DNA from: a virus
Lineage: Duplodnaviria; Heunggongvirae; Uroviricota; Caudoviricetes
Strand: one strand, 5' to 3'
DNA: 37,677 nucleotides
Virus record (IMG/VR): IMGVR_UViG_2579778866_000003
The notes under the pieces were generated by a model. It searched no databases. It saw only the letters and a list, made by a program, of their open reading frames with translations, and had not been told where the DNA came from. Below, piece after piece: positions 1,136 to 35,057 of this stretch (the stretch's first letter is position 1; every line of letters starts with the position of its first letter). Position numbers and translations under genes: made by a program.

Positions 1136-2812
1136 CTAAGCAACATGTAGTTCATCGTTGGCGGAAGTGGCTGCTTTGCGCTCCTGCTCAATAGATAGAG
1201 ACTCTCTATATTCTTTCGCCTCTGCAAACATTGTCCAGTGGGCGTTGATGTTCATGTCTTCAATAACTGATTTGATTTCTTTTAAATTTACGTTAAAAAA
1301 CTCTTTTCGTGAGTTAATTTTATTGACCTGCTTTTCGTTGAAAACTTTATGCAGATGGTTTTCTAATGATGGTGCATCATCACTATAAATCATCGCATGA
1401 ACATCGAACGAAAAAGGAACACTAGCATCTCCGAGTTCACGAACACGATCAAGTGGTTCAAGGCGGCGTGTCATTCCAATTTTATATACATCTTCGCCAA
1501 ATGAACCAATATTACTAATGATATAGACGTGGCCTGATCTGGTTTGTTGAGCCATAGAAATAGCTCGTTGATTTTTAGCTTCAGCTTCTTCATATTTTAA
1601 CTGTAGTTCAGCTATTTTTTGCTCTAAAGCTAAGCGTTGTTCTTCATTTGCAAGCATAAGTTCTTTCGTTGCTTTATTTATAGCTTGCTGAATAGCTTTT
1701 TCTTCTTTTTCAGCTTCTTTTATCGCTTTTTCATATTCTCTACGAGCTCTTTCCTCTTCACGAAGCTGTTCTTTAATCCTTCTTTGCTCTTCTTTTTCTT
1801 CGAGCATAATTTCATTAACTGCTACACCCCATTTTAGCTCGTTGAGTCTTGCCTGAAGATAGATGTCACTTATTTTTGCGGACCTAAAGGCAGAGCCATT
1901 GTAATTTACTAGTTGAAATGCATCTTTTATTTCTTGGGAAAGTTTTCCAAAATTGTTGTGTTTGACTTTTGATAAAATACTGTCAACTCTTCCATTGAAG
2001 GCATCCAAAACAAAGTTTATGGCAGTATTACGCCTGTTTTGCTCAACATAATCACACGAAGCAGCTTTATTAGTTTTTATTAATGATTTGGTTAACTCTC
2101 TGGCTTTTTGTAATTCCTTGCCTGCATCTGTAAATTCATAATTTTCTGCCAGCTCATCAAGTACACTACGGTTAGGGATGATCCATTCATCACCATAACC
2201 TTCAATTTTATTTTTCATTGATTTTGCAACTGCTTCATATTTTTCTGCAAACTCTTTAGCTTCATATGCTGAACCAGCAATCTCCTTTGCTCTTTCTTCT
2301 GCATCAGAAATAATTTTTACTGCATTGTCATTAGCATTTGAGATTAGCTCATTTGCTTTATTATTAGCATTATCAAGACGTTCTTTGGCTTTCAGGCGTG
2401 CATCGCGAGCGTCTTTGGTGATTGCTATAGCTTCGCTATTAGCGTTGCTTATTGTCATCTGAGCTTGATAATTTGCTTCGTTTACTGTTTTAGCCGCCTT
2501 AATTTGGGCTTCATCTATTTTTTGCTTGGCTATTGAGTCCGCATTTTTTATCTTATTCTCTGCATCCATTACTGCGCTGTGCAATTCTTCGTATTGCCAC
2601 AATGGTGCTGCTCGCCCTTCAAGCTCTGATAATTCTCGTACGGTCTGTGCTAGTTTTTCTTGATTTTCAATCAGTTGGTTAGAAAGGGCTATGTTGTTAG
2701 CTGTCAGGTTATCTATAGCCGCTTTGTGTTTTTTACTTTGTTTAAATAATATTACAGCTAGAACAGGGGCGAGAAATGCTAATAAGAGTATAACGATGGC
2801 AAATGAATTCAT
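1136..2812 (-). CDS. Accessory membrane-anchored coiled-coil protein with C-terminal T5orf172 (GIY-YIG-like) domain, DUF4041-type architecture
   Basis: 558 aa; N-terminal hydrophobic helix (FAIVILLLAFLAPVLAVILF); long Ala/Lys/Glu/Asn-rich coiled-coil; C-terminal GHVYIISNIGSFGEDVYKIGMTRRLEPLDRVRELG motif; AAGGA Shine-Dalgarno 7 nt before the ATG; visibly AT-rich. Confidence 0.75.
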   Translation of the reverse strand: MNSFAIVILLLAFLAPVLAVILFKQSKKHKAAIDNLTANNIALSNQLIENQEKLAQTVRELSELEGRAAPLWQYEELHSAVMDAENKIKNADSIAKQKIDEAQIKAAKTVNEANYQAQMTISNANSEAIAITKDARDARLKAKERLDNANNKANELISNANDNAVKIISDAEERAKEIAGSAYEAKEFAEKYEAVAKSMKNKIEGYGDEWIIPNRSVLDELAENYEFTDAGKELQKARELTKSLIKTNKAASCDYVEQNRRNTAINFVLDAFNGRVDSILSKVKHNNFGKLSQEIKDAFQLVNYNGSAFRSAKISDIYLQARLNELKWGVAVNEIMLEEKEEQRRIKEQLREEERARREYEKAIKEAEKEEKAIQQAINKATKELMLANEEQRLALEQKIAELQLKYEEAEAKNQRAISMAQQTRSGHVYIISNIGSFGEDVYKIGMTRRLEPLDRVRELGDASVPFSFDVHAMIYSDDAPSLENHLHKVFNEKQVNKINSRKEFFNVNLKEIKSVIEDMNINAHWTMFAEAKEYRESLSIEQERKAATSANDELHVA

Positions 2813-2832: not shown

Positions 2833-3429
2833 TTAATTCGAGACTATTGTACTTCTTATACAAGCAACCACTTCAATATCAGAAAATGCACATTCAAAGC
2901 TATTCTCTGCTGTTGTAATTTTAATCATTCCTTTAGGAAGCCTTGTGATTTTTCGAATGGAATAGGTTCCGTCGATATTGATTAACCAGTTTCCATCAAG
3001 TACTTCAGAAAATTTTTGATCACAAATGTATGTGACGAGTCCATCCTGAACAACAATTGGTGATGAAAGGTTTGCAGGAAGAAATGATGAATCGAAGACA
3101 TATGAACCGTCTTCAATCATTTTGCCTGCGGCAAGGCGAAACTTAACAAGCTCTTCTGTAGCTGCTGTCAGCGAGCTTTGCTTAAGGCCTTGTCCGGTAG
3201 TTAACCATTTGAGGGAGGTTCCTGTTTCAAGAGCACATTGGATTATCCAGTCAGCAGGAAATGTATCCCGCAAATACCTGTTCGCTAGTGTGCTTTTTGA
3301 TACTTCCAAGTGATCAGCTAAAGCCTGTCGTGTCGTAAAGCCATAGGCTTCGACTAATCGCTCAATCGCAGCCTTACCACCTTTATTGGGATTTATTTTG
3401 ATCTCACTTGGGTACTTTGATGTTGGCAT
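2833..3429 (-). CDS. cI: CI-type immunity repressor (186 CI-like)
   Basis: 198 aa; N-terminal segment LADHLEVSKSTLANRYLRDTFPADWIIQCALETGTSLKWLTTGQG resembles the phage CI repressor HTH family; divergent from the apl/cII lytic operon. Confidence 0.7.
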   Translation of the reverse strand: MPTSKYPSEIKINPNKGGKAAIERLVEAYGFTTRQALADHLEVSKSTLANRYLRDTFPADWIIQCALETGTSLKWLTTGQGLKQSSLTAATEELVKFRLAAGKMIEDGSYVFDSSFLPANLSSPIVVQDGLVTYICDQKFSEVLDGNWLINIDGTYSIRKITRLPKGMIKITTAENSFECAFSDIEVVACIRSTIVSN

Positions 3430-5579: not shown

Positions 5580-6433
5580 GCACTATCCTGAAATGGGCGG
5601 GAAATAAAACCGCCATTATGCCAGAACTGAAAAAATACCTTCCTGCTGGCCCGCGACTGGTTGAACCTTTCGCGGGTTCCTGTGCTGTGATGATGGAAAC
5701 GGATTATCCCAGCTATCTGGTTGCGGATATTAATCCTGATTTAATCAACCTCTATAAAAAGGTTGCCGCTGATTGTGAATCGTTTATATCTCGCGCCAGA
5801 GTTTTATTTGAGATCGCAAACAGGGAGGTGGCTTATTACAACATAAGGCAGGAGTTTAACTGCTCAACTGAAATTACTGATTTCATGAAAGCGGTATATT
5901 TCCTGTATCTCAATCGTCACGGTTACCGTGGTTTATGTCGCTATAACAAGAGCGGGCATTTCAACATTCCCTACGGTAATTATAAAAATCCGTATTTCCC
6001 TGAAAAAGAACTTCGCACATTTGCAGAAAAAGCCCAGCGAGCAACGTTTATCTGCGCCAGCTTTGATGAAACGCTGGCGATGTTGAAGGCGGGAGATGTG
6101 GTGTATTGCGATCCGCCATATGACGGTACGTTTTCCGGCTATCACACTGATGGTTTCACTGAAGATGACCAGTATCACCTGGCATCCATTCTTGAACATC
6201 GGTCATCAGAAGGACATCCGGTCATTGTTTCTAACAGTGACACATCCCTGATCCGTTCGCTGTATCGCAATTTTACTCACCACTATATCAAGGTTAAACG
6301 CAGCATCGGTGTGGCAACTGGCGAGGGTAAATCAGCAACAGAAATCATTGCTGTTTCCGGGCCGCGCTGCTGGATGGGATTTGATTATTCGCGTGGCGTG
6401 GATAGTTCTGCCGTGTACGGAGTACGTGCATGA
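5576..6433 (+). CDS. dam: DNA adenine methyltransferase (Dam-like)
   Basis: [12 protein letters not shown]-terminus, FAGSCAV motif I and VYCDPPY (DPPY) motif; GGAGGT Shine-Dalgarno; start overlaps the TraR-like stop. Confidence 0.85.
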
Positions 6434-8844
6434 GTCATGCCGATATGAACAACTGCTGCGGCTTTAACGAGGCTGCCGCAGCATTCTCATGGAACAGCCC
6501 GAAAAAGGCCATTAACCCTTATCTGGACCCGGCGGAAGTTGCGCCGGTTTCTACGCTTTCAAACCTGATCACTCTGTACGCTGCCGATAACGAGCAGGAA
6601 CAGTTGCGCCGCGAGGCACTGAGTGATCAGGTCTGGGAGCGTTATTTCTTTAATGAATCACGTGATCCTGTCCAGCGCGAAATGGAGCAGGATAAGCTCA
6701 TTAGCCGGGCAAAGCTGGCGCATGAGCAGCAGCGTTTTAATTCAGACATGGTCATTCTGGCGGACGTCAACGCCCTGCCTTCCCATATCAGCAAGCCGCT
6801 GATGCAACGTATTGAATACTTCAGCAGCCTGGGCAGGCCAAAGGCTTATTCCCGCTATTTACGTGAGACGATTAAGCCATGTCTGGAACGACTGGAGCAT
6901 GTACGCGACAGTCAGCTATCTGCATCTTTTCGCTTTATGGCAAGCCATGAAGGGCTGGACGGCCTGCTGATCCTGCCTGAAATGAGTCAGGATCAGGTGA
7001 AACGCCTGTCCACCCTGGTAGCTGCGCATATGAGTATGTGCCTTGATGCAGCTTGTGGTGATTTGTATGCCACCGATGACGTTAAGCCAGAAGAAATCCG
7101 CAAGACATGGGAAAAGGTGGCAGCGGAAACCCTGCGTCTGGATGTCATCCCACCTGCGTTTGAGCAACTCCGTCGGAAAAGAAACCGCCGTAAACCCGTG
7201 CCCTATGAACTCATTCCGGGTTCGCTGGCGCGTATGTTGTGCGCCGACTGGTGGTATCGGAAATTATGGAAGATGCGTTGCGAATGGCGGGAAGAGCAGT
7301 TGCGCGCTGTTTGCCTGGTCAGCAAAAAAGCATCTCCTTATGTCAGCTATGAAGCCGTGATGCATAAACGTGAGCAGCGCCGTAAGTCGCTGGAGTTTTT
7401 CCGTTCTCATGAACTGGTGAACGAAGACGGCGACACGCTGGACATGGAGGATGTGGTAAACGCCAGCAGCAGCAACCCTGCGCATCGCCGCAATGAGATG
7501 ATGGCCTGTGTTAAAGGTCTGGAGCTTATTGCGGAAATGCGCGGTGACTGCGCCGTTTTCTACACTATCACCTGTCCGTCGCGTTTCCATTCCACGCTAA
7601 ATAACGGCAGACCAAACCCGACCTGGACAAACGCGACGGTAAGACAAAGCAGCGATTATCTGGTCGGCATGTTTGCTGCATTTCGTAAGGCGATGCACAA
7701 AGCCGGGTTGCGCTGGTATGGCGTGCGGGTGGCTGAGCCGCATCATGATGGCACAGTTCACTGGCACCTGTTGTGTTTCATGCGCAAAAAAGACCGCCGT
7801 GCCATCACTGCATTACTGCGTAAGTTTGCCATCCGTGAAGACCGCGAGGAGCTGGGCAATAACACTGGGCCGCGCTTTAAGTCTGAGTTGATTAACCCGC
7901 GCAAAGGAACGCCGACAAGCTACATCGCGAAATATATCAGTAAGAACATTGACGGTCGTGGTCTGGCTGGCGAGATCAGCAAGGAAACGGGTAAATCTCT
8001 GCGTGATAACGCTGAATACGTGAATGCCTGGGCGTCTCTGCATCGTGTTCAGCAATTCCGCTTCTTTGGTATTCCGGGGCGTCAGGCTTACCGTGAACTT
8101 CGCTTGCTGGCTGGTCAGGCGGCAAGGCAACAGGGTGACAAAAAAGCAGGTGCGCCGGTACTGGATAACCCGCGTCTTGATGCCATTCTGGCTGCTGCTG
8201 ATGCTGGTTGTTTTGCCACCTACATCATGAAGCAGGGCGGCGTACTGGTTCCCCGTAAATATCACCTCATCAGAACCGCTTATGAAATCAACGAAGAGCC
8301 GACCGCCTATGGCGATCACGGCATTCGTATTTATGGCATCTGGTCACCCATTGCAGAGGGCAAGATCTGCACCCATGCAGTGAAGTGGAAAATGGTTCGT
8401 AAAGCCGTTGACGTTCAGGAGGCGGCAGCCGACCAGGGCGCTTGCGCCCCTTGGACTCGTGGCAATAACTGTCCCCTTGCTGAAAATTTGAACCAACAGG
8501 AGAAAGATAAATCAGCTGATGGGGACATCAGAACGGACATTACCCGCATGGATGACAAGGAGTTGCACGATTACCTGCACAGTATGAGCAAAAAAGAGCG
8601 CCGGGAACTGGCTGCAAGGTTACGCCTGGTTAAACCGAAACGGCGTAAAGACTACAAACAGCGAATTACAGACCATCAGCGACTGCAGCTCGTCTATGAG
8701 CTGAAGTCCAGAGGATTTGATGGTAGCGAGAAAGAGGTCGATTTACTCCTTCGCGGCGGCAGTATTCCGTCAGGAGCAGGCCTGCGTATCTTCTATCGGA
8801 ACCAGCGTTTGCAGGAAGATGATAAGTGGCGGAACCTGTATTAA
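6430..8844 (+). CDS. A: Replication initiation endonuclease (P2 gpA-like)
   Basis: 804-aa protein at the P2 A position; start overlaps the dam stop. Confidence 0.8.
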
Positions 8845-8936
8845 TTACGCGGGTTAACAATTCGTGCTCTTAATAATACCAGGCATATCAGGCTGATGAA
8901 CGTAAAAAAACGTTTTACATCAGTAAGATTATTATA

Positions 8937-8956
8937 TACTGTAAATATAAACAGTG
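8937..8956 (+). promoter_or_regulatory. LexA (SOS) box TACTGTAAATATAAACAGTG
   Basis: CTGT-N8-ACAG with AT-rich spacer, matching the E. coli LexA consensus TACTGTATATATATACAGTA at most positions; lies 40 bp upstream of the small ORF / DinI-like pair. Confidence 0.6.
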
Positions 8957-8996
8957 GTTATGTATACAGTATTGCTTTGGTGTCATAGGAGGAAAG

Positions 8997-9185
8997 ATGC
9001 AGGACTATTTTTTGGAGTCTTTGAAGCTCCAGCGCATTGATTTTTTTCTTAAGCTTGTAGCGACTAGTGAGTGTAGTGATGAAGAGAAGGGGCTGGCTTT
9101 GCAGTGGGTTTCTGAACTAACAGATGAACTCATGGCAAAAATCAGAACCCACGAATACAACCGCTCAATGGATGTCATCAGTTGA
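8997..9185 (+). CDS. Small SOS-controlled protein, possible N-terminal part of a Tum-like antirepressor
   Basis: 62-aa ORF with strong GGAGGAAAG Shine-Dalgarno; directly downstream of the LexA box and upstream of the DinI-like ORF. Confidence 0.5.
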   Translation: MQDYFLESLKLQRIDFFLKLVATSECSDEEKGLALQWVSELTDELMAKIRTHEYNRSMDVIS

Positions 9186-9196
9186 GGTGACTTTTT

Positions 9197-9430
9197 ATGC
9201 GCATTGAAATAATGATCGATAAAGAGCAGAAGATTAGCCAGTCTACCCTGGACGCCCTTGAATCCGAGCTTTACCGCAATCTGCGCCCCCTGTATCCCAA
9301 AACGGTAATTCGTATCCGCAAAGGTAGCTCTAACGGTGTGGAACTTACCGGATTGCAACTGGACGAAGAAAGAAAACAAGTGATGAAAATTATGCAGAAG
9401 GTGTGGGAAGACGACAGCTGGCTGCATTAA
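9197..9430 (+). CDS. DinI-family protein (Tum/DinI-like)
   Basis: 77 aa, MRIEIMIDKEQKISQSTLDALESELYRNLRPLYP ... KVWEDDSWL matches the DinI family pattern; GAGGTG Shine-Dalgarno. Confidence 0.75.
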   Translation: MRIEIMIDKEQKISQSTLDALESELYRNLRPLYPKTVIRIRKGSSNGVELTGLQLDEERKQVMKIMQKVWEDDSWLH

Positions 9431-9438
9431 GAAACGTT

Positions 9439-9477
9439 GCCCCCAAGAGGATTCATTCTGATGGGGGCTAGTTTTGG
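9439..9477 (+). terminator. Hairpin GCCCCCA / TGGGGGC followed by T-rich tail
   Basis: 7-bp GC-rich stem 9439-9445 / 9462-9468 followed by TAGTTTTGG; just after the DinI-like stop. The loop is long. Confidence 0.4.
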
Positions 9478-9620
9478 CAACGAGTGAAACGAGGCGTAAG
9501 GTGGGTGGGCATTTTGATAAGTGCTCGTTCGCTTTGTGCCAGAGGCGGGCATTAATACAAATTTCACGTGATAAAACGGTACTCAGTTATTCTAATCTGA
9601 CATGCATAAACGTTGTTGGA

Positions 9621-10031
9621 TTACAAAACATCAACAACTTCAAACTCTTCCATAATCAGCTCCATATCATCAGAAAAGTAACCTTCACATGTAAAAAATC
9701 GTTGATGCTCTCTCTGCCAATATTCAAGACTCAAATCGCCTTCACCTTCCTTGCGAGCGAACTCGGCAGTAACATCACAAAAACGCACCAGTCGCATCGA
9801 CACCAGCCGGGTCACGCATACCGGTACATCTTGGCCGTTAAGGATGATGTTATAGCTCCCAATCCTTGGGGCAAACTCTTCCTTCTGGTAAGAGGCATAA
9901 GAGCCGCAGGAGGCCGTTTTAATTCCTTTTTTGATAAGCGCTGCAAGCTCGTTAGCCAGTTCAGGGCTGTCGCCCATTTGCCAGGCATTCGCGTCCGGAT
10001 ATTTCATCTTTAATTCATCAACCGTAACCAT
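9621..10031 (-). CDS. ASCH-domain protein (PUA-like fold)
   Basis: 136 aa; N-terminal WQMGDSPELANELAALIKKGIKTASCG resembles the ASCH domain signature; encoded antisense to flanking genes; AT-rich. Confidence 0.55.
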   Translation of the reverse strand: MVTVDELKMKYPDANAWQMGDSPELANELAALIKKGIKTASCGSYASYQKEEFAPRIGSYNIILNGQDVPVCVTRLVSMRLVRFCDVTAEFARKEGEGDLSLEYWQREHQRFFTCEGYFSDDMELIMEEFEVVDVL

Positions 10032-10313
10032 TACAAGTCCTTTCTAATTGTAAAAATAGATAAATAGCTGAGCATTAATTGTTCAAATATTAACAGTGAT
10101 GCTCTCTTGTTAGTATCATAGTCCGTTTCTCGTTCACAGTGGGCCTTCAGTTTTTTGTCTGCTTTGTGCCAAAAACAGACGTCTAAATATCCTATTGTCA
10201 GTTATAAAAAGTGATGAGTGTTCTACATATTAAATTTACAGAGGCAGAAACTCCGTGTTTAAATACGGTTCTTTCCACCCAATAAGCATTAACAACTTAA
10301 GGACCCCATAAAA

Positions 10314-11276
10314 ATGCCAGTATTAGACTTCAAAGAAATACCAGAGGCTCATAAAGCAACAGGGCTGCAAGACACATTTGAACTTTTTTCTCGCGACTTC
10401 TTAGCTTTTCTGGGATATAAAATTATATCTGACCCAGATAGAGGGGCTGACGGTGGGGTTGATATTATAGCCGAAGAAAAAAGGACTGGTGTCGGCGGGG
10501 AAACAATTATCCGTTGGTTGGTAAGCTGTAAGCATAAAGCTCATAGTGGAAATTCAGTTAATCCAGGAGATGATGCAAATATTACTGATCGAGTAATAGC
10601 GAATAACTGCCAAGGATTTATCGGGTTCTATTCAACTCTTGCTAGTGCAGGTCTGTCTGGAATACTTGACGGGTTGAAAGGACGAATTGAATTTCAGGTT
10701 TTCGATAAAGAGAAAATAGAGAGGGAACTTTTACACTCTTCCAGAGGATTGGAAATTGCCGAAAGGTACTTCCCAAAGTCGTTATCTGAGTGGAAAACAG
10801 AAAACCCCAAACCCGCAAGAATATTTTCCGATGAACCTAGCTTAAAATGCAAAGTTTGCAAGAAAGAGCTTCTGTCTCAAGACGACAAGGGAATTATCAC
10901 TATATGGCAAAGAATCCGCACCGACTACGAAAAAGAACCAGAGTATAATGAACATATTTTTTGGACGTGTCGAGGCAACTGCGACCAAGCACTCCGGCAG
11001 TATGTTAGAAAACAAACAAACAATGGCCTTATTGATGGCTGGGAAGATATAGCTGATGTAATGATGCCAACTGTGTTTATAAAATGGGTCATGACAATAA
11101 TGAATGAGTTAAGATCTGGGACCCTATATTCAGATGAGGCATTTGACGAACTCAAGACATTTTTGATCAATATTTACCCATTTGCATGTCGTCATCTCAC
11201 CGAAAAAGAAAAAGAAAGGGTTAAATCATTAATGATGATACCTTCGTATCTTGGCGGCATGAACTATGAAGGTTAA
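10314..11276 (+). CDS. Mrr-cat-like (PD-(D/E)xK) nuclease domain fused to a Cys-containing C-terminal domain of unknown function
   Basis: 320 aa; N-terminus FLAFLGYKIISDPDRGADGGVDIIAEEK ... RWLVSCKHK resembles the Mrr restriction-endonuclease catalytic domain; C-terminal half has CKVCKK and CRGNCD; AT-rich. Confidence 0.65.
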   Translation: MPVLDFKEIPEAHKATGLQDTFELFSRDFLAFLGYKIISDPDRGADGGVDIIAEEKRTGVGGETIIRWLVSCKHKAHSGNSVNPGDDANITDRVIANNCQGFIGFYSTLASAGLSGILDGLKGRIEFQVFDKEKIERELLHSSRGLEIAERYFPKSLSEWKTENPKPARIFSDEPSLKCKVCKKELLSQDDKGIITIWQRIRTDYEKEPEYNEHIFWTCRGNCDQALRQYVRKQTNNGLIDGWEDIADVMMPTVFIKWVMTIMNELRSGTLYSDEAFDELKTFLINIYPFACRHLTEKEKERVKSLMMIPSYLGGMNYEG

Positions 11277-11352
11277 GAGAGGGGGCGTTAGCCATCTTCG
11301 AGAGTATTCAGTAAGGATTTGAAGAGAGAATATATAAATAGACCATTTATAC

Positions 11353-11397
11353 CTGAACAGAAGTCATATTGAGCTAGACGTTTCTGTTCAGTTTTTT
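11353..11397 (+). terminator. Rho-independent terminator downstream of the Mrr-like gene
   Basis: Perfect 10-bp inverted repeat CTGAACAGAA (11353-11362) / TTCTGTTCAG (11382-11391) followed by TTTTTT. Confidence 0.5.
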
Positions 11398-11767
11398 AGT
11401 GTCTTCATTATCATATATCGCTCGAAAAGTCTCCCCGAAAACCAAGAGCATTTCCTTAATTGAAGTTGCTGTTGTCACCGCTGCGCATCCGTAACAGCTT
11501 ACATGCTGCTTCGCTCTGTTTCAGTGCCAAAAAGCAAGGAGTTAATGTCCGCTTTTCACTCACAGCGGACTTTCATCTTTGTAAACCCGTATGATTCGCT
11601 TTTCAGCGGTCATTCAGATACGGATTTACGCTTCCCTTGGCTGTGCATGACTATGCTGCATGAAATCGCATGATCGATTGAGGATCGTTTTTGCAGAGAC
11701 CTGCTAGAACTGGCGAGCTTTTACTCATGTCATGCAGGTGCATGAAAACCACTGCATAAAGCGGGCA

Positions 11768-11793
11768 GGCGTGGCGGGGATACGATTGCGCGC
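11768..11793 (+). other. Candidate cos site (cohesive-end region)
   Basis: GGCGTGGCGGGGATACGAT followed by TGCGCGC; the first 13 nt and the following TGCGCGC match my recollection of the P2/186 19-nt cohesive end and its flank; located before Q as in P2. Confidence 0.4.
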
Positions 11794-11867
11794 AGAAGAT
11801 TATTATTGGTACACTGTCGGTGACTCTCTACGCAGATCTTACACATTAATTTCTAATGGGGCATGCT

Positions 11868-12668
11868 ATGATCTTTCTAAGTCATAATCACCGTGACAAA
11901 AGGTTTGTAAGTGTTATAGCGGAAAAACTAGCAGATGTTTATGGGCGTGATAACGTATTCTACGATTCTTGGTCTATCCAACCCGGAGAGGGTATTATTG
12001 ACAAGATGAATTTAGGAATGGAGAATGTATCGTTCTTTTTCTTTTTTGTCACAGAAAATAGTTTGGCAAGTAACATGGTAAAAATGGAATGGCAAAATGC
12101 TTTAATTAAGGCATCGTCCGGGAAGTGTAAATTTATACCAATACGTTGCCAGAATATATCCTTGCCTGCTCTGCTTACTCAAACGCTATATATTGATCTT
12201 TATTCGTATGGGATCGATGTGGCAATAAGACAAATTATAGATGTCATTAATCAACAAAATACGTATATTCCTAATCCTGAGAAGTATTCAAACCTCTCCT
12301 ATGATATTAAGGATGGTGATGGGGGTAAGATAGTGAAATTATCAGCAATGGATTTTTTAGAACCAATTGCTGATTTTATGATGATTATGGATAATACAAT
12401 TAAGCATGATGATGTTGTTGTTATGGTCAATGGAGAAAGCACATTCACTCAGGGGTTTATTGAAAATGCATCTTTAGAAAATGGTATGAAAGTAAGTGGT
12501 GCCACTGTTGGCCTAAATCGGGGGTTAACACCAACGATGCCAATGTATGTTTCTCTTAGGTTAAAGGATGGTTCACCTTTGAATATATTTGCGGTGCTAC
12601 ATCGAGTAAGTACCGAGCGTTATGCTCCTATACCACATAAAGCCGATGATGCCTTTAGAGTAAAATAA
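11868..12668 (+). CDS. TIR-domain protein with C-terminal domain of unknown function
   Basis: N-terminus IFLSHNHRDKRFVSVIAEKL ... VFYDSWSIQPGEGIIDKM ... FFFFFVTENSLASNMVKMEWQNAL fits the bacterial TIR pattern; alternative ATG at 11856; AT-rich; sits between cos and Q. Confidence 0.7.
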   Translation: MIFLSHNHRDKRFVSVIAEKLADVYGRDNVFYDSWSIQPGEGIIDKMNLGMENVSFFFFFVTENSLASNMVKMEWQNALIKASSGKCKFIPIRCQNISLPALLTQTLYIDLYSYGIDVAIRQIIDVINQQNTYIPNPEKYSNLSYDIKDGDGGKIVKLSAMDFLEPIADFMMIMDNTIKHDDVVVMVNGESTFTQGFIENASLENGMKVSGATVGLNRGLTPTMPMYVSLRLKDGSPLNIFAVLHRVSTERYAPIPHKADDAFRVK

Positions 12669-34892: not shown

Positions 34893-34935
34893 TTTAGGCA
34901 ACAAAAAACCCATCAACCTTGAACCGAAATGGCGG
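34893..34935 (-). terminator. Hairpin with minus-strand T-run, probable ybjL terminator
   Basis: CCCATCAACC (34899-34908) / GGTTGATGGG (34926-34935) preceded on the plus strand by AAAAAA; the loop is long at 17 nt. Confidence 0.4.
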
Positions 34936-35057
34936 GGTTGATGGGCTCCACAAAATGGGGACATCAAAGAAAAGCAGTGGCACTAATTAAGACTGATGCC
35001 CTGCGGAAAAGTTCTGCGGTTGTGCAAAAAAATTTCATTTTCAGGGCAACTTCAGTT

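Follow-up and report, generated by a model that had tools for sequence, protein, structure and literature searches.

Among the closest known relatives of the locus studied here is the tum gene (CP95) of phage 186, which belongs to the p95 operon. As in our locus, tum is located directly downstream of replication gene A, its LexA box begins at the -10 hexamer TACTGT, and the phage encodes a 186-type CI repressor. According to Shearwin et al. (1998), as cited in PMC3121763, Tum binds CI and reversibly blocks its operator binding. Tum is made as one polypeptide of 146 aa, and internal starts also give the DinI-like part alone (Tum95.5). The 186 record annotates such truncated products starting inside tum, the DinI-only Tum95.5 included, as modulating SOS induction. 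A single LexA box precedes tum in 186, and orf97 follows it after a partial terminator.

Split forms of tum have been described as well. Lemire et al. (2011; PMC3121763), on a basis that includes a personal communication from G. Christie, stated that tum is split in two in Fels-2 and PSP3 and that the upstream gene of PSP3 has antirepressor activity. The PSP3 record (NC_005340) annotates tumA as "similar to 5' end 186 tum; UV induction of prophage" and tumB as "similar to dinI and 3' end of 186 tum", the same split as in our locus. In the Phollow study (PMC12055606), a markerless deletion of "tum" and a lexA(Ind-) allele each abolished mitomycin C induction of DuoHS, a P2-like prophage of E. 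coli HS. Judged by its title, which appears among the references of PMC3121763, the work of Bunny et al. (2002) attributed the lethality of a lexA null mutation in Salmonella to the Fels-2 prophage. The Gifsy prophages also combine a LexA-controlled DinI homologue with a small antirepressor, but there dinI comes first, and GfoA/GftA and the repressors belong to other families (PMC3121763). Our own literature search for tumA/tumB found nothing.

By its sequence-level features, all of which are present, the module described below belongs to the tum / tumA-tumB SOS-induction system already known from 186-like and Fels-2-like Peduoviridae. The split-tum module is thus not new: very close relatives have provided both its description and a genetic test.

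Layout of the SOS module

The window, by which we mean the whole stretch of DNA that was analysed (37,677 nt or 37.7 kb, one strand read), is a P2-family prophage of E. coli (Fels-2-type, Peduoviridae). Its features that bear on SOS induction are as follows.

2833-3429, minus strand: 186-type CI immunity repressor (Pfam domains Phage_CI_repr and Phage_CI_C) and inferred target of TumA
6430-8844: replication gene A (gpA), directly 5' of the SOS module
8914-8919, plus strand: probable -35 hexamer TTTACA of the SOS promoter, which by analogy corresponds to 186 p95; an alignment of 30 loci shows it conserved as tTTtAC
8937-8971, plus strand: predicted LexA operator, with box 1 at 8937-8956 and an overlapping box 2 (core 8954-8969)
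8997-9185, plus strand: tumA-like gene (ORF62, 62 aa), ATG start, AGGAGG at 8987-8992
9197-9430, plus strand: tumB-like gene (ORF77, 77 aa, DinI family), ATG start, GAGGTG at 9184-9189
9439-9475, plus strand: probable intrinsic terminator of the two-gene SOS operon, a GCCCCCA...UGGGGGC stem followed by UAGUUUU

The sequence-only reading of the window had placed a LexA box just 5' of a 62-aa and a 77-aa ORF with an 11-nt gap between them, and each of these elements was recovered at its proposed position. The 11-nt spacer contains the GAGGTG motif. Downstream of tumB, the terminator-like hairpin at 9439-9475 folded as RNA at -21 kcal/mol (z -3.3), and none of 200 shuffled sequences was as stable; a simple terminator scan made no call for it. 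A search of positions 8800-9700 against Rfam found no RNA family.

Two other candidate features of the module were rejected. The 140-aa antisense ORF that spans both genes (9005-9427, minus strand) was judged a spurious chance ORF, its equivalent in relatives being only 42-82 aa long. A stem-loop at 9174-9191 takes in the stop codon of tumA together with the Shine-Dalgarno sequence of tumB, and a T5 run follows it; it was flagged as terminator-like by the scan and was considered as a coupling or attenuation device. It was dropped because only the closest relatives share the stem, which other genera lack.

Among the known systems, those of Fels-2 (STM2728 / STM2726.1) and DuoHS are effectively the module of the window: the nucleotide identity is ∼98%, TumA is 97% and TumB 100% identical, and the same double operator is present. 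They differ from the window in a spacer of 10 rather than 11 nt, in the genes downstream of tumB, and in a CI that is 41-54% identical. The similarity of Fels-2 and DuoHS to the window stops precisely at the tumB stop codon. PSP3 is more distant. Its TumA belongs to a different subfamily (phrog_1993, vs. phrog_698 in the window) and is related at the profile level only, and it has a 3-nt in-frame spacer and a single LexA box where the window has 11 nt and a double operator. With respect to 186, the N-terminal 44 residues of Tum are homologous to ORF62 and its DinI-like C-terminal half is 41% identical to ORF77, but the window carries two separate genes in place of one polypeptide, a double operator in place of a single box, and no homologue of orf97. 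A 243-aa gene downstream of tumB in Fels-2 was considered as an orf97 homologue, since it has the same length, and was rejected because the two show no similarity.

LexA operator and promoter

Box 1 (TACTGTAAATATAAACAGTG, 8937-8956) was the sole match to the 20-mer LexA consensus with three or fewer mismatches in the 37.7-kb window, where shuffled sequences gave an expectation of 0.00. It was also the single occurrence in the window of the exact pattern CTGT-N8-ACAG. Its first six bases (TACTGT) are the presumed -10 hexamer, and the operator is located 93 nt past the gpA stop codon and 41 nt upstream of the tumA ATG. Among 30 other loci with enough upstream sequence, 29 had an SOS box at the same place 5' of tumA (25 exact and four with one core mismatch).

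Alignment of the upstream regions of 30 loci revealed a second conserved element immediately 3' of the first box. In the window, this box 2 (core GTGGTTATGTATACAG, 8954-8969) overlaps box 1. The resulting double operator, CTGTAAATATAAACAGTGGTTATGTATACAG at 8939-8969, follows the pattern CTG-N10-CAGTG-N10-CAG, i.e., two 16-bp boxes sharing one base. This dual pattern occurs once in the window and was also found in Fels-2, DuoHS and Cartapus; 19 of 30 species-level loci carry it, and two more do so in a looser form. A single box is present in phages 186 and PSP3 and in loci from Pantoea, Tatumella and Erwinia.

When plasmids were searched with the 44-nt operator stretch, small Col-type plasmids and Yersinia pestis pPCP1 gave matches over 37-39 nt, with identities of 87-92%. 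The matching sequences lie directly 5' of the genes for colicin R (cra), pesticin (pst) and a Klebsiella colicin-like bacteriocin. Box 2 of the window starts with GTG, not CTG, and the same is true of the colicin R, pesticin and Klebsiella bacteriocin operators. In colicin operons, as PMC2994835 relates with reference to Lu and Chak (1996), a double box is bound by two LexA dimers and guards against untimely expression of the lethal product. On this sequence comparison, the window operator is a colicin-type double overlapping SOS box, for which occupancy by two LexA dimers is predicted. The architecture is the same in the two settings, although it controls a toxin in the colicin and pesticin operons and a prophage antirepressor gene here. 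The colicin logic of preventing untimely lethal expression would suit the decision of a prophage to lyse its host too. The similarity of the operators may reflect a shared constraint rather than common descent. In the searchable literature we found no description of a double operator at a tum promoter, which is not proof of novelty.

The hexamer TTTACA is located 17 nt upstream of TACTGT in the window, compared with the TTCACA-18-TACTGT arrangement annotated for 186 p95. A generic sigma-70 scan called no promoter at the operon because the -10 hexamer matches the consensus at only three of six positions. By analogy with 186 p95, and given its conservation, this is probably the SOS promoter of the operon.

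The tumA and tumB products and prophage induction

ORF62 matched phrog_698 in the PHROG collection (E 7.5e-38), as well as phrog_8554 and phrog_1993, and residues 1-70 of 186 Tum matched the same three families (phrog_698 at E 5.9e-6). When a profile of 28 ORF62-family sequences was compared with 186 Tum by hhalign, Tum residues 3-44 were aligned with a probability of 94.9% (E 4.5e-8). The common motif is roughly QR[IV]xLxxRLxAxxxCxxxD[KR]E[LI]ALxW/LxxE[LI]. At the profile level, PSP3 TumA was matched weakly (E 0.0038). In pairwise BLASTP, ORF62 showed no similarity to 186 Tum or PSP3 TumA; it had no match in Pfam, and a sequence search of the PDB was empty. On the profile evidence, ORF62 is homologous to the N-terminal part of 186 Tum, the relationship being remote but significant. 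Its AlphaFold model is a two-helix hairpin (helices 2-23 and 28-61, pLDDT 89), and a Foldseek search of the model against the PDB returned generic helical hairpins only, none of them at E 0.001 or below. Across a library comprising 1.84 billion representative proteins, members of the ORF62 family are stand-alone proteins of ∼50-100 aa. ORF62 is 97% identical to ECHS_RS04495, the "tum" product of DuoHS in E. coli HS.

ORF77 matched the Pfam DinI family (PF06183) over all 63 model positions (1-63) at E 6.6e-23 and 81.3 bits (cut-off 24.2), and phrog_189 at E 1.5e-29. It was aligned over its full length with the E. coli DinI structures 1GHH and 7YWA (E 2.7e-6; residues 1-75 for 1GHH). It is 41% identical to residues 71-145 of 186 Tum (E 3e-24), 78% identical to PSP3 TumB and 100% identical to the DinI proteins of Fels-2 and DuoHS. 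Judged from its DinI family membership, TumB presumably binds RecA filaments, modulates their co-protease activity and tunes the SOS signal. Neither ORF matched a defence system in PADLOC. The proposal that the information of Tum (146 aa) appears here as two ORFs (62 and 77 aa) under predicted LexA control is borne out as a two-gene arrangement by these homologies and by the p95-like layout: ORF77 aligned with the C-terminal half of Tum and with DinI, and ORF62 with the N-terminal part of Tum at the profile level.

Public records, among them those of RefSeq E. coli, Fels-2 and Cartapus, nearly always call the functional antirepressor gene a "hypothetical protein", and in one case a "levan regulatory protein". 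They give a name to the DinI-like gene alone, which in some of them is "tum". The comparison made here corrects this routine annotation, in which the antirepressor gene of close relatives is left as "hypothetical protein" and the accessory DinI-like gene receives the name.

We consider it very probable that the module is the SOS-induction operon of a Fels-2-type E. coli prophage, working in the following way. In the undamaged lysogen, LexA bound to the double SOS operator would cover the -10/start region and keep the operon off. Upon DNA damage, activated RecA would promote the self-cleavage of LexA, and a short bicistronic tumA-tumB mRNA would be made. TumA, the two-helix hairpin, would then act as an antirepressor which, by analogy with 186 Tum, sequesters the 186-type CI without cleavage and stops its DNA binding. 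With CI inactivated, the early lytic promoter would be derepressed and the prophage induced. TumB would bind RecA filaments and tune the SOS signal as an optional accessory, not as the inducer. For the window element itself, we infer the LexA-operator, TumA-CI and TumB-RecA contacts. Since two LexA-controlled genes carry the information of 186 Tum, the prophage would be SOS-inducible, unlike P2. Such an operon would explain how this prophage, and those in the approximately one in five complete E. coli genomes that have the module, respond to DNA damage and to SOS-inducing antibiotics, which is of relevance to phage-mediated gene transfer in the gut.

The most direct functional evidence comes from DuoHS. 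The "tum" deleted in the Phollow study is a 189-bp ORF (locus tag ECHS_RS04495; primers NHR24 and NHR28; PMC12055606) located immediately 5' of the DinI-like gene. The deletion joins the ATG of the 62-aa ORF to its TGA, and the Shine-Dalgarno sequence of the DinI gene and the start of that gene (GGTGACTTTTATGCGCATTG) are retained. Because the 62-aa ORF was removed, the DinI gene was kept and induction was abolished, the 62-aa protein is the inducer in DuoHS and the DinI-like protein alone is insufficient. These genetics are carried over to the window by analogy, across a CI that is 54% identical.

The CI of the window (2833-3429, minus strand) matched Pfam Phage_CI_repr at E 8e-32 and Phage_CI_C at E 3.5e-27; its identity to 186 CI is 32%. 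When the window was compared with five other Fels-2-type phages (L005, L006, L008, L009 and L013), TumA was 97-98% and gpA 89-99% identical, whereas CI was only 41-54% identical. By domain, the identity of CI was 67-76% in the N-terminal DNA-binding part and 32-43% in the C-terminal part. This pattern suggests one of two things: free recombination between the tum-A block and the immunity block, with TumA recognizing a conserved surface of CI, or a TumA that is not equally effective on all CIs. If the surface is conserved, the N-terminal DNA-binding domain is the obvious candidate and may be what TumA contacts. Co-resident heteroimmune prophages would then cross-induce each other, as the Gifsy antirepressors do (PMC3121763).

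A diverged CI that TumA fails to recognize would leave the module without a role in induction here, e.g., as an SOS-induced accessory (moron) operon serving the host DNA-damage response. The low identity of the window CI to repressors that are paired with a nearly identical TumA is what such a reading can draw on. However, near-identical TumA proteins pair with many CI alleles in complete phages that are inducible where tested, the CI N-terminal domain is much better conserved than the protein as a whole, and tumA is under purifying selection (see below). We regard the accessory-operon reading as improbable, and we continue to favour the SOS-induction operon.

One could also assign the trigger to the DinI-like protein (e.g., via RecA or CI) and make ORF62 a leader or accessory peptide only. 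In the Gifsy prophages, DinI-like genes do stand first in the LexA-controlled operons that encode antirepressors, and databases name the DinI gene alone and leave ORF62 hypothetical. Such an assignment is contradicted by the in-frame DuoHS deletion, which spared the DinI gene with its Shine-Dalgarno sequence and abolished induction, by the antirepressor activity reported for the upstream gene of PSP3 (PMC3121763), and by the 186 record, which lists the DinI-only Tum95.5 as a modulator of SOS induction. It is contradicted as well by the 12 of 32 loci (31 species-level loci of our comparison set plus the window) that have tumA without a DinI gene (L019, L021, L031, L032, L036-L042 and L044). In four more loci (L018, L026, L030 and L043) the DinI gene is truncated. 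We therefore conclude that tumA is autonomous and that the DinI gene is an optional companion that has repeatedly been lost; a DinI-like trigger appears highly improbable. In L042, tumA is also degraded.

With TumA retained as the probable inducer, the operator and the CI comparison can be joined into a further proposal of two parts. The first is that the double operator drives tumA in Fels-2-type prophages so as to give a high-threshold, late and probably bistable SOS output, not an early one. The second is that the near-invariant TumA may target the conserved N-terminal domain of CI and bring about cross-induction between heteroimmune P2-like prophages that share a cell. We put this forward tentatively, and hold the two parts together to be somewhat less probable than their being wrong in one or the other. 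The module otherwise opens no new question; its double operator is mildly interesting, as is the pairing of a conserved TumA with a diverged CI.

Two-gene form in relatives and neighbouring genes

The module was present in 1125 of 5426 complete E. coli genomes, in up to three copies per genome, and it is ∼98% identical in Fels-2 and in many Klebsiella and E. coli phages. Among the species-level loci, the spacer between the two ORFs was 8-12 nt long and the relative frames 0, 1 and 2 were all represented: the window has +2, DuoHS and Fels-2 have +1, and others have 0. The frame of Fels-2 and E. coli HS differs from that of the window because the spacer contains T5 in the window and T4 in these closest relatives. 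Codon differences were predominantly synonymous in both genes (510 synonymous vs. 290 non-synonymous in tumA; 269 vs. 167 in tumB). By this comparison, tumA and tumB are both under purifying selection.

These data bear on whether a TumA-TumB fusion, produced by programmed frameshifting or stop-codon readthrough, could be the active antirepressor as in 186. The PSP3 ORFs share one frame with a stop codon and 3 nt between them, and the T5 run in the window spacer could be taken as a slippery site for the same end. The variable spacer and the presence of all three frames exclude a conserved frameshift or readthrough, as no single recoding event could be conserved across all of them; the T run is only T4 in the closest relatives, and the DinI part is missing or truncated in the 16 loci listed above. 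An active fusion is thus very improbable indeed, and separate TumA and TumB proteins remain the preferred reading.

The sequence-only reading also entertained a frameshifted tum. This alternative, taken broadly as a pseudogene in which a frameshift, a nonsense mutation or a sequencing error interrupts a single 186-like tum, has in its favour that 62 + 77 aa come near to the 146 aa of Tum with only 11 nt between the ORFs, but it can be dismissed, given that the two-ORF form occurs in Fels-2, DuoHS, Cartapus, many Klebsiella phages, more than 1000 E. coli genomes and 31 species-level loci across genera with variable spacer and frame, that each ORF has its own Shine-Dalgarno sequence and ATG, that synonymous changes exceed non-synonymous ones in both, and that the TumA family consists of stand-alone proteins in the library of 1.84 billion.

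Several genes around the module were noted in passing. The interval between the tumB terminator and the portal gene (9621-12668) is a variable cargo region, and Fels-2 and DuoHS have unrelated genes here. In the window it contains the following genes.

9621-10031, minus strand: ASCH-domain protein
10314-11276, plus strand: Mrr_cat-like nuclease
11856-12668, plus strand: TIR-domain protein, with weak matches to TIR entries in PADLOC

A further cargo gene is located in the integrase/cI interval (1136-2812, minus strand). Its 558-aa product matched the anti-phage defence protein PD-Lambda-1 (PADLOC E 3e-120; Pfam DUF4041 and T5orf172/MUG113). At the right prophage end, a RybB small RNA gene (34900-34978, minus strand; Rfam 105 bits) marks the host flank. 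DuoHS is located between rcdA and ybjL in E. coli HS, which may be the same chromosomal region as that of the window prophage.
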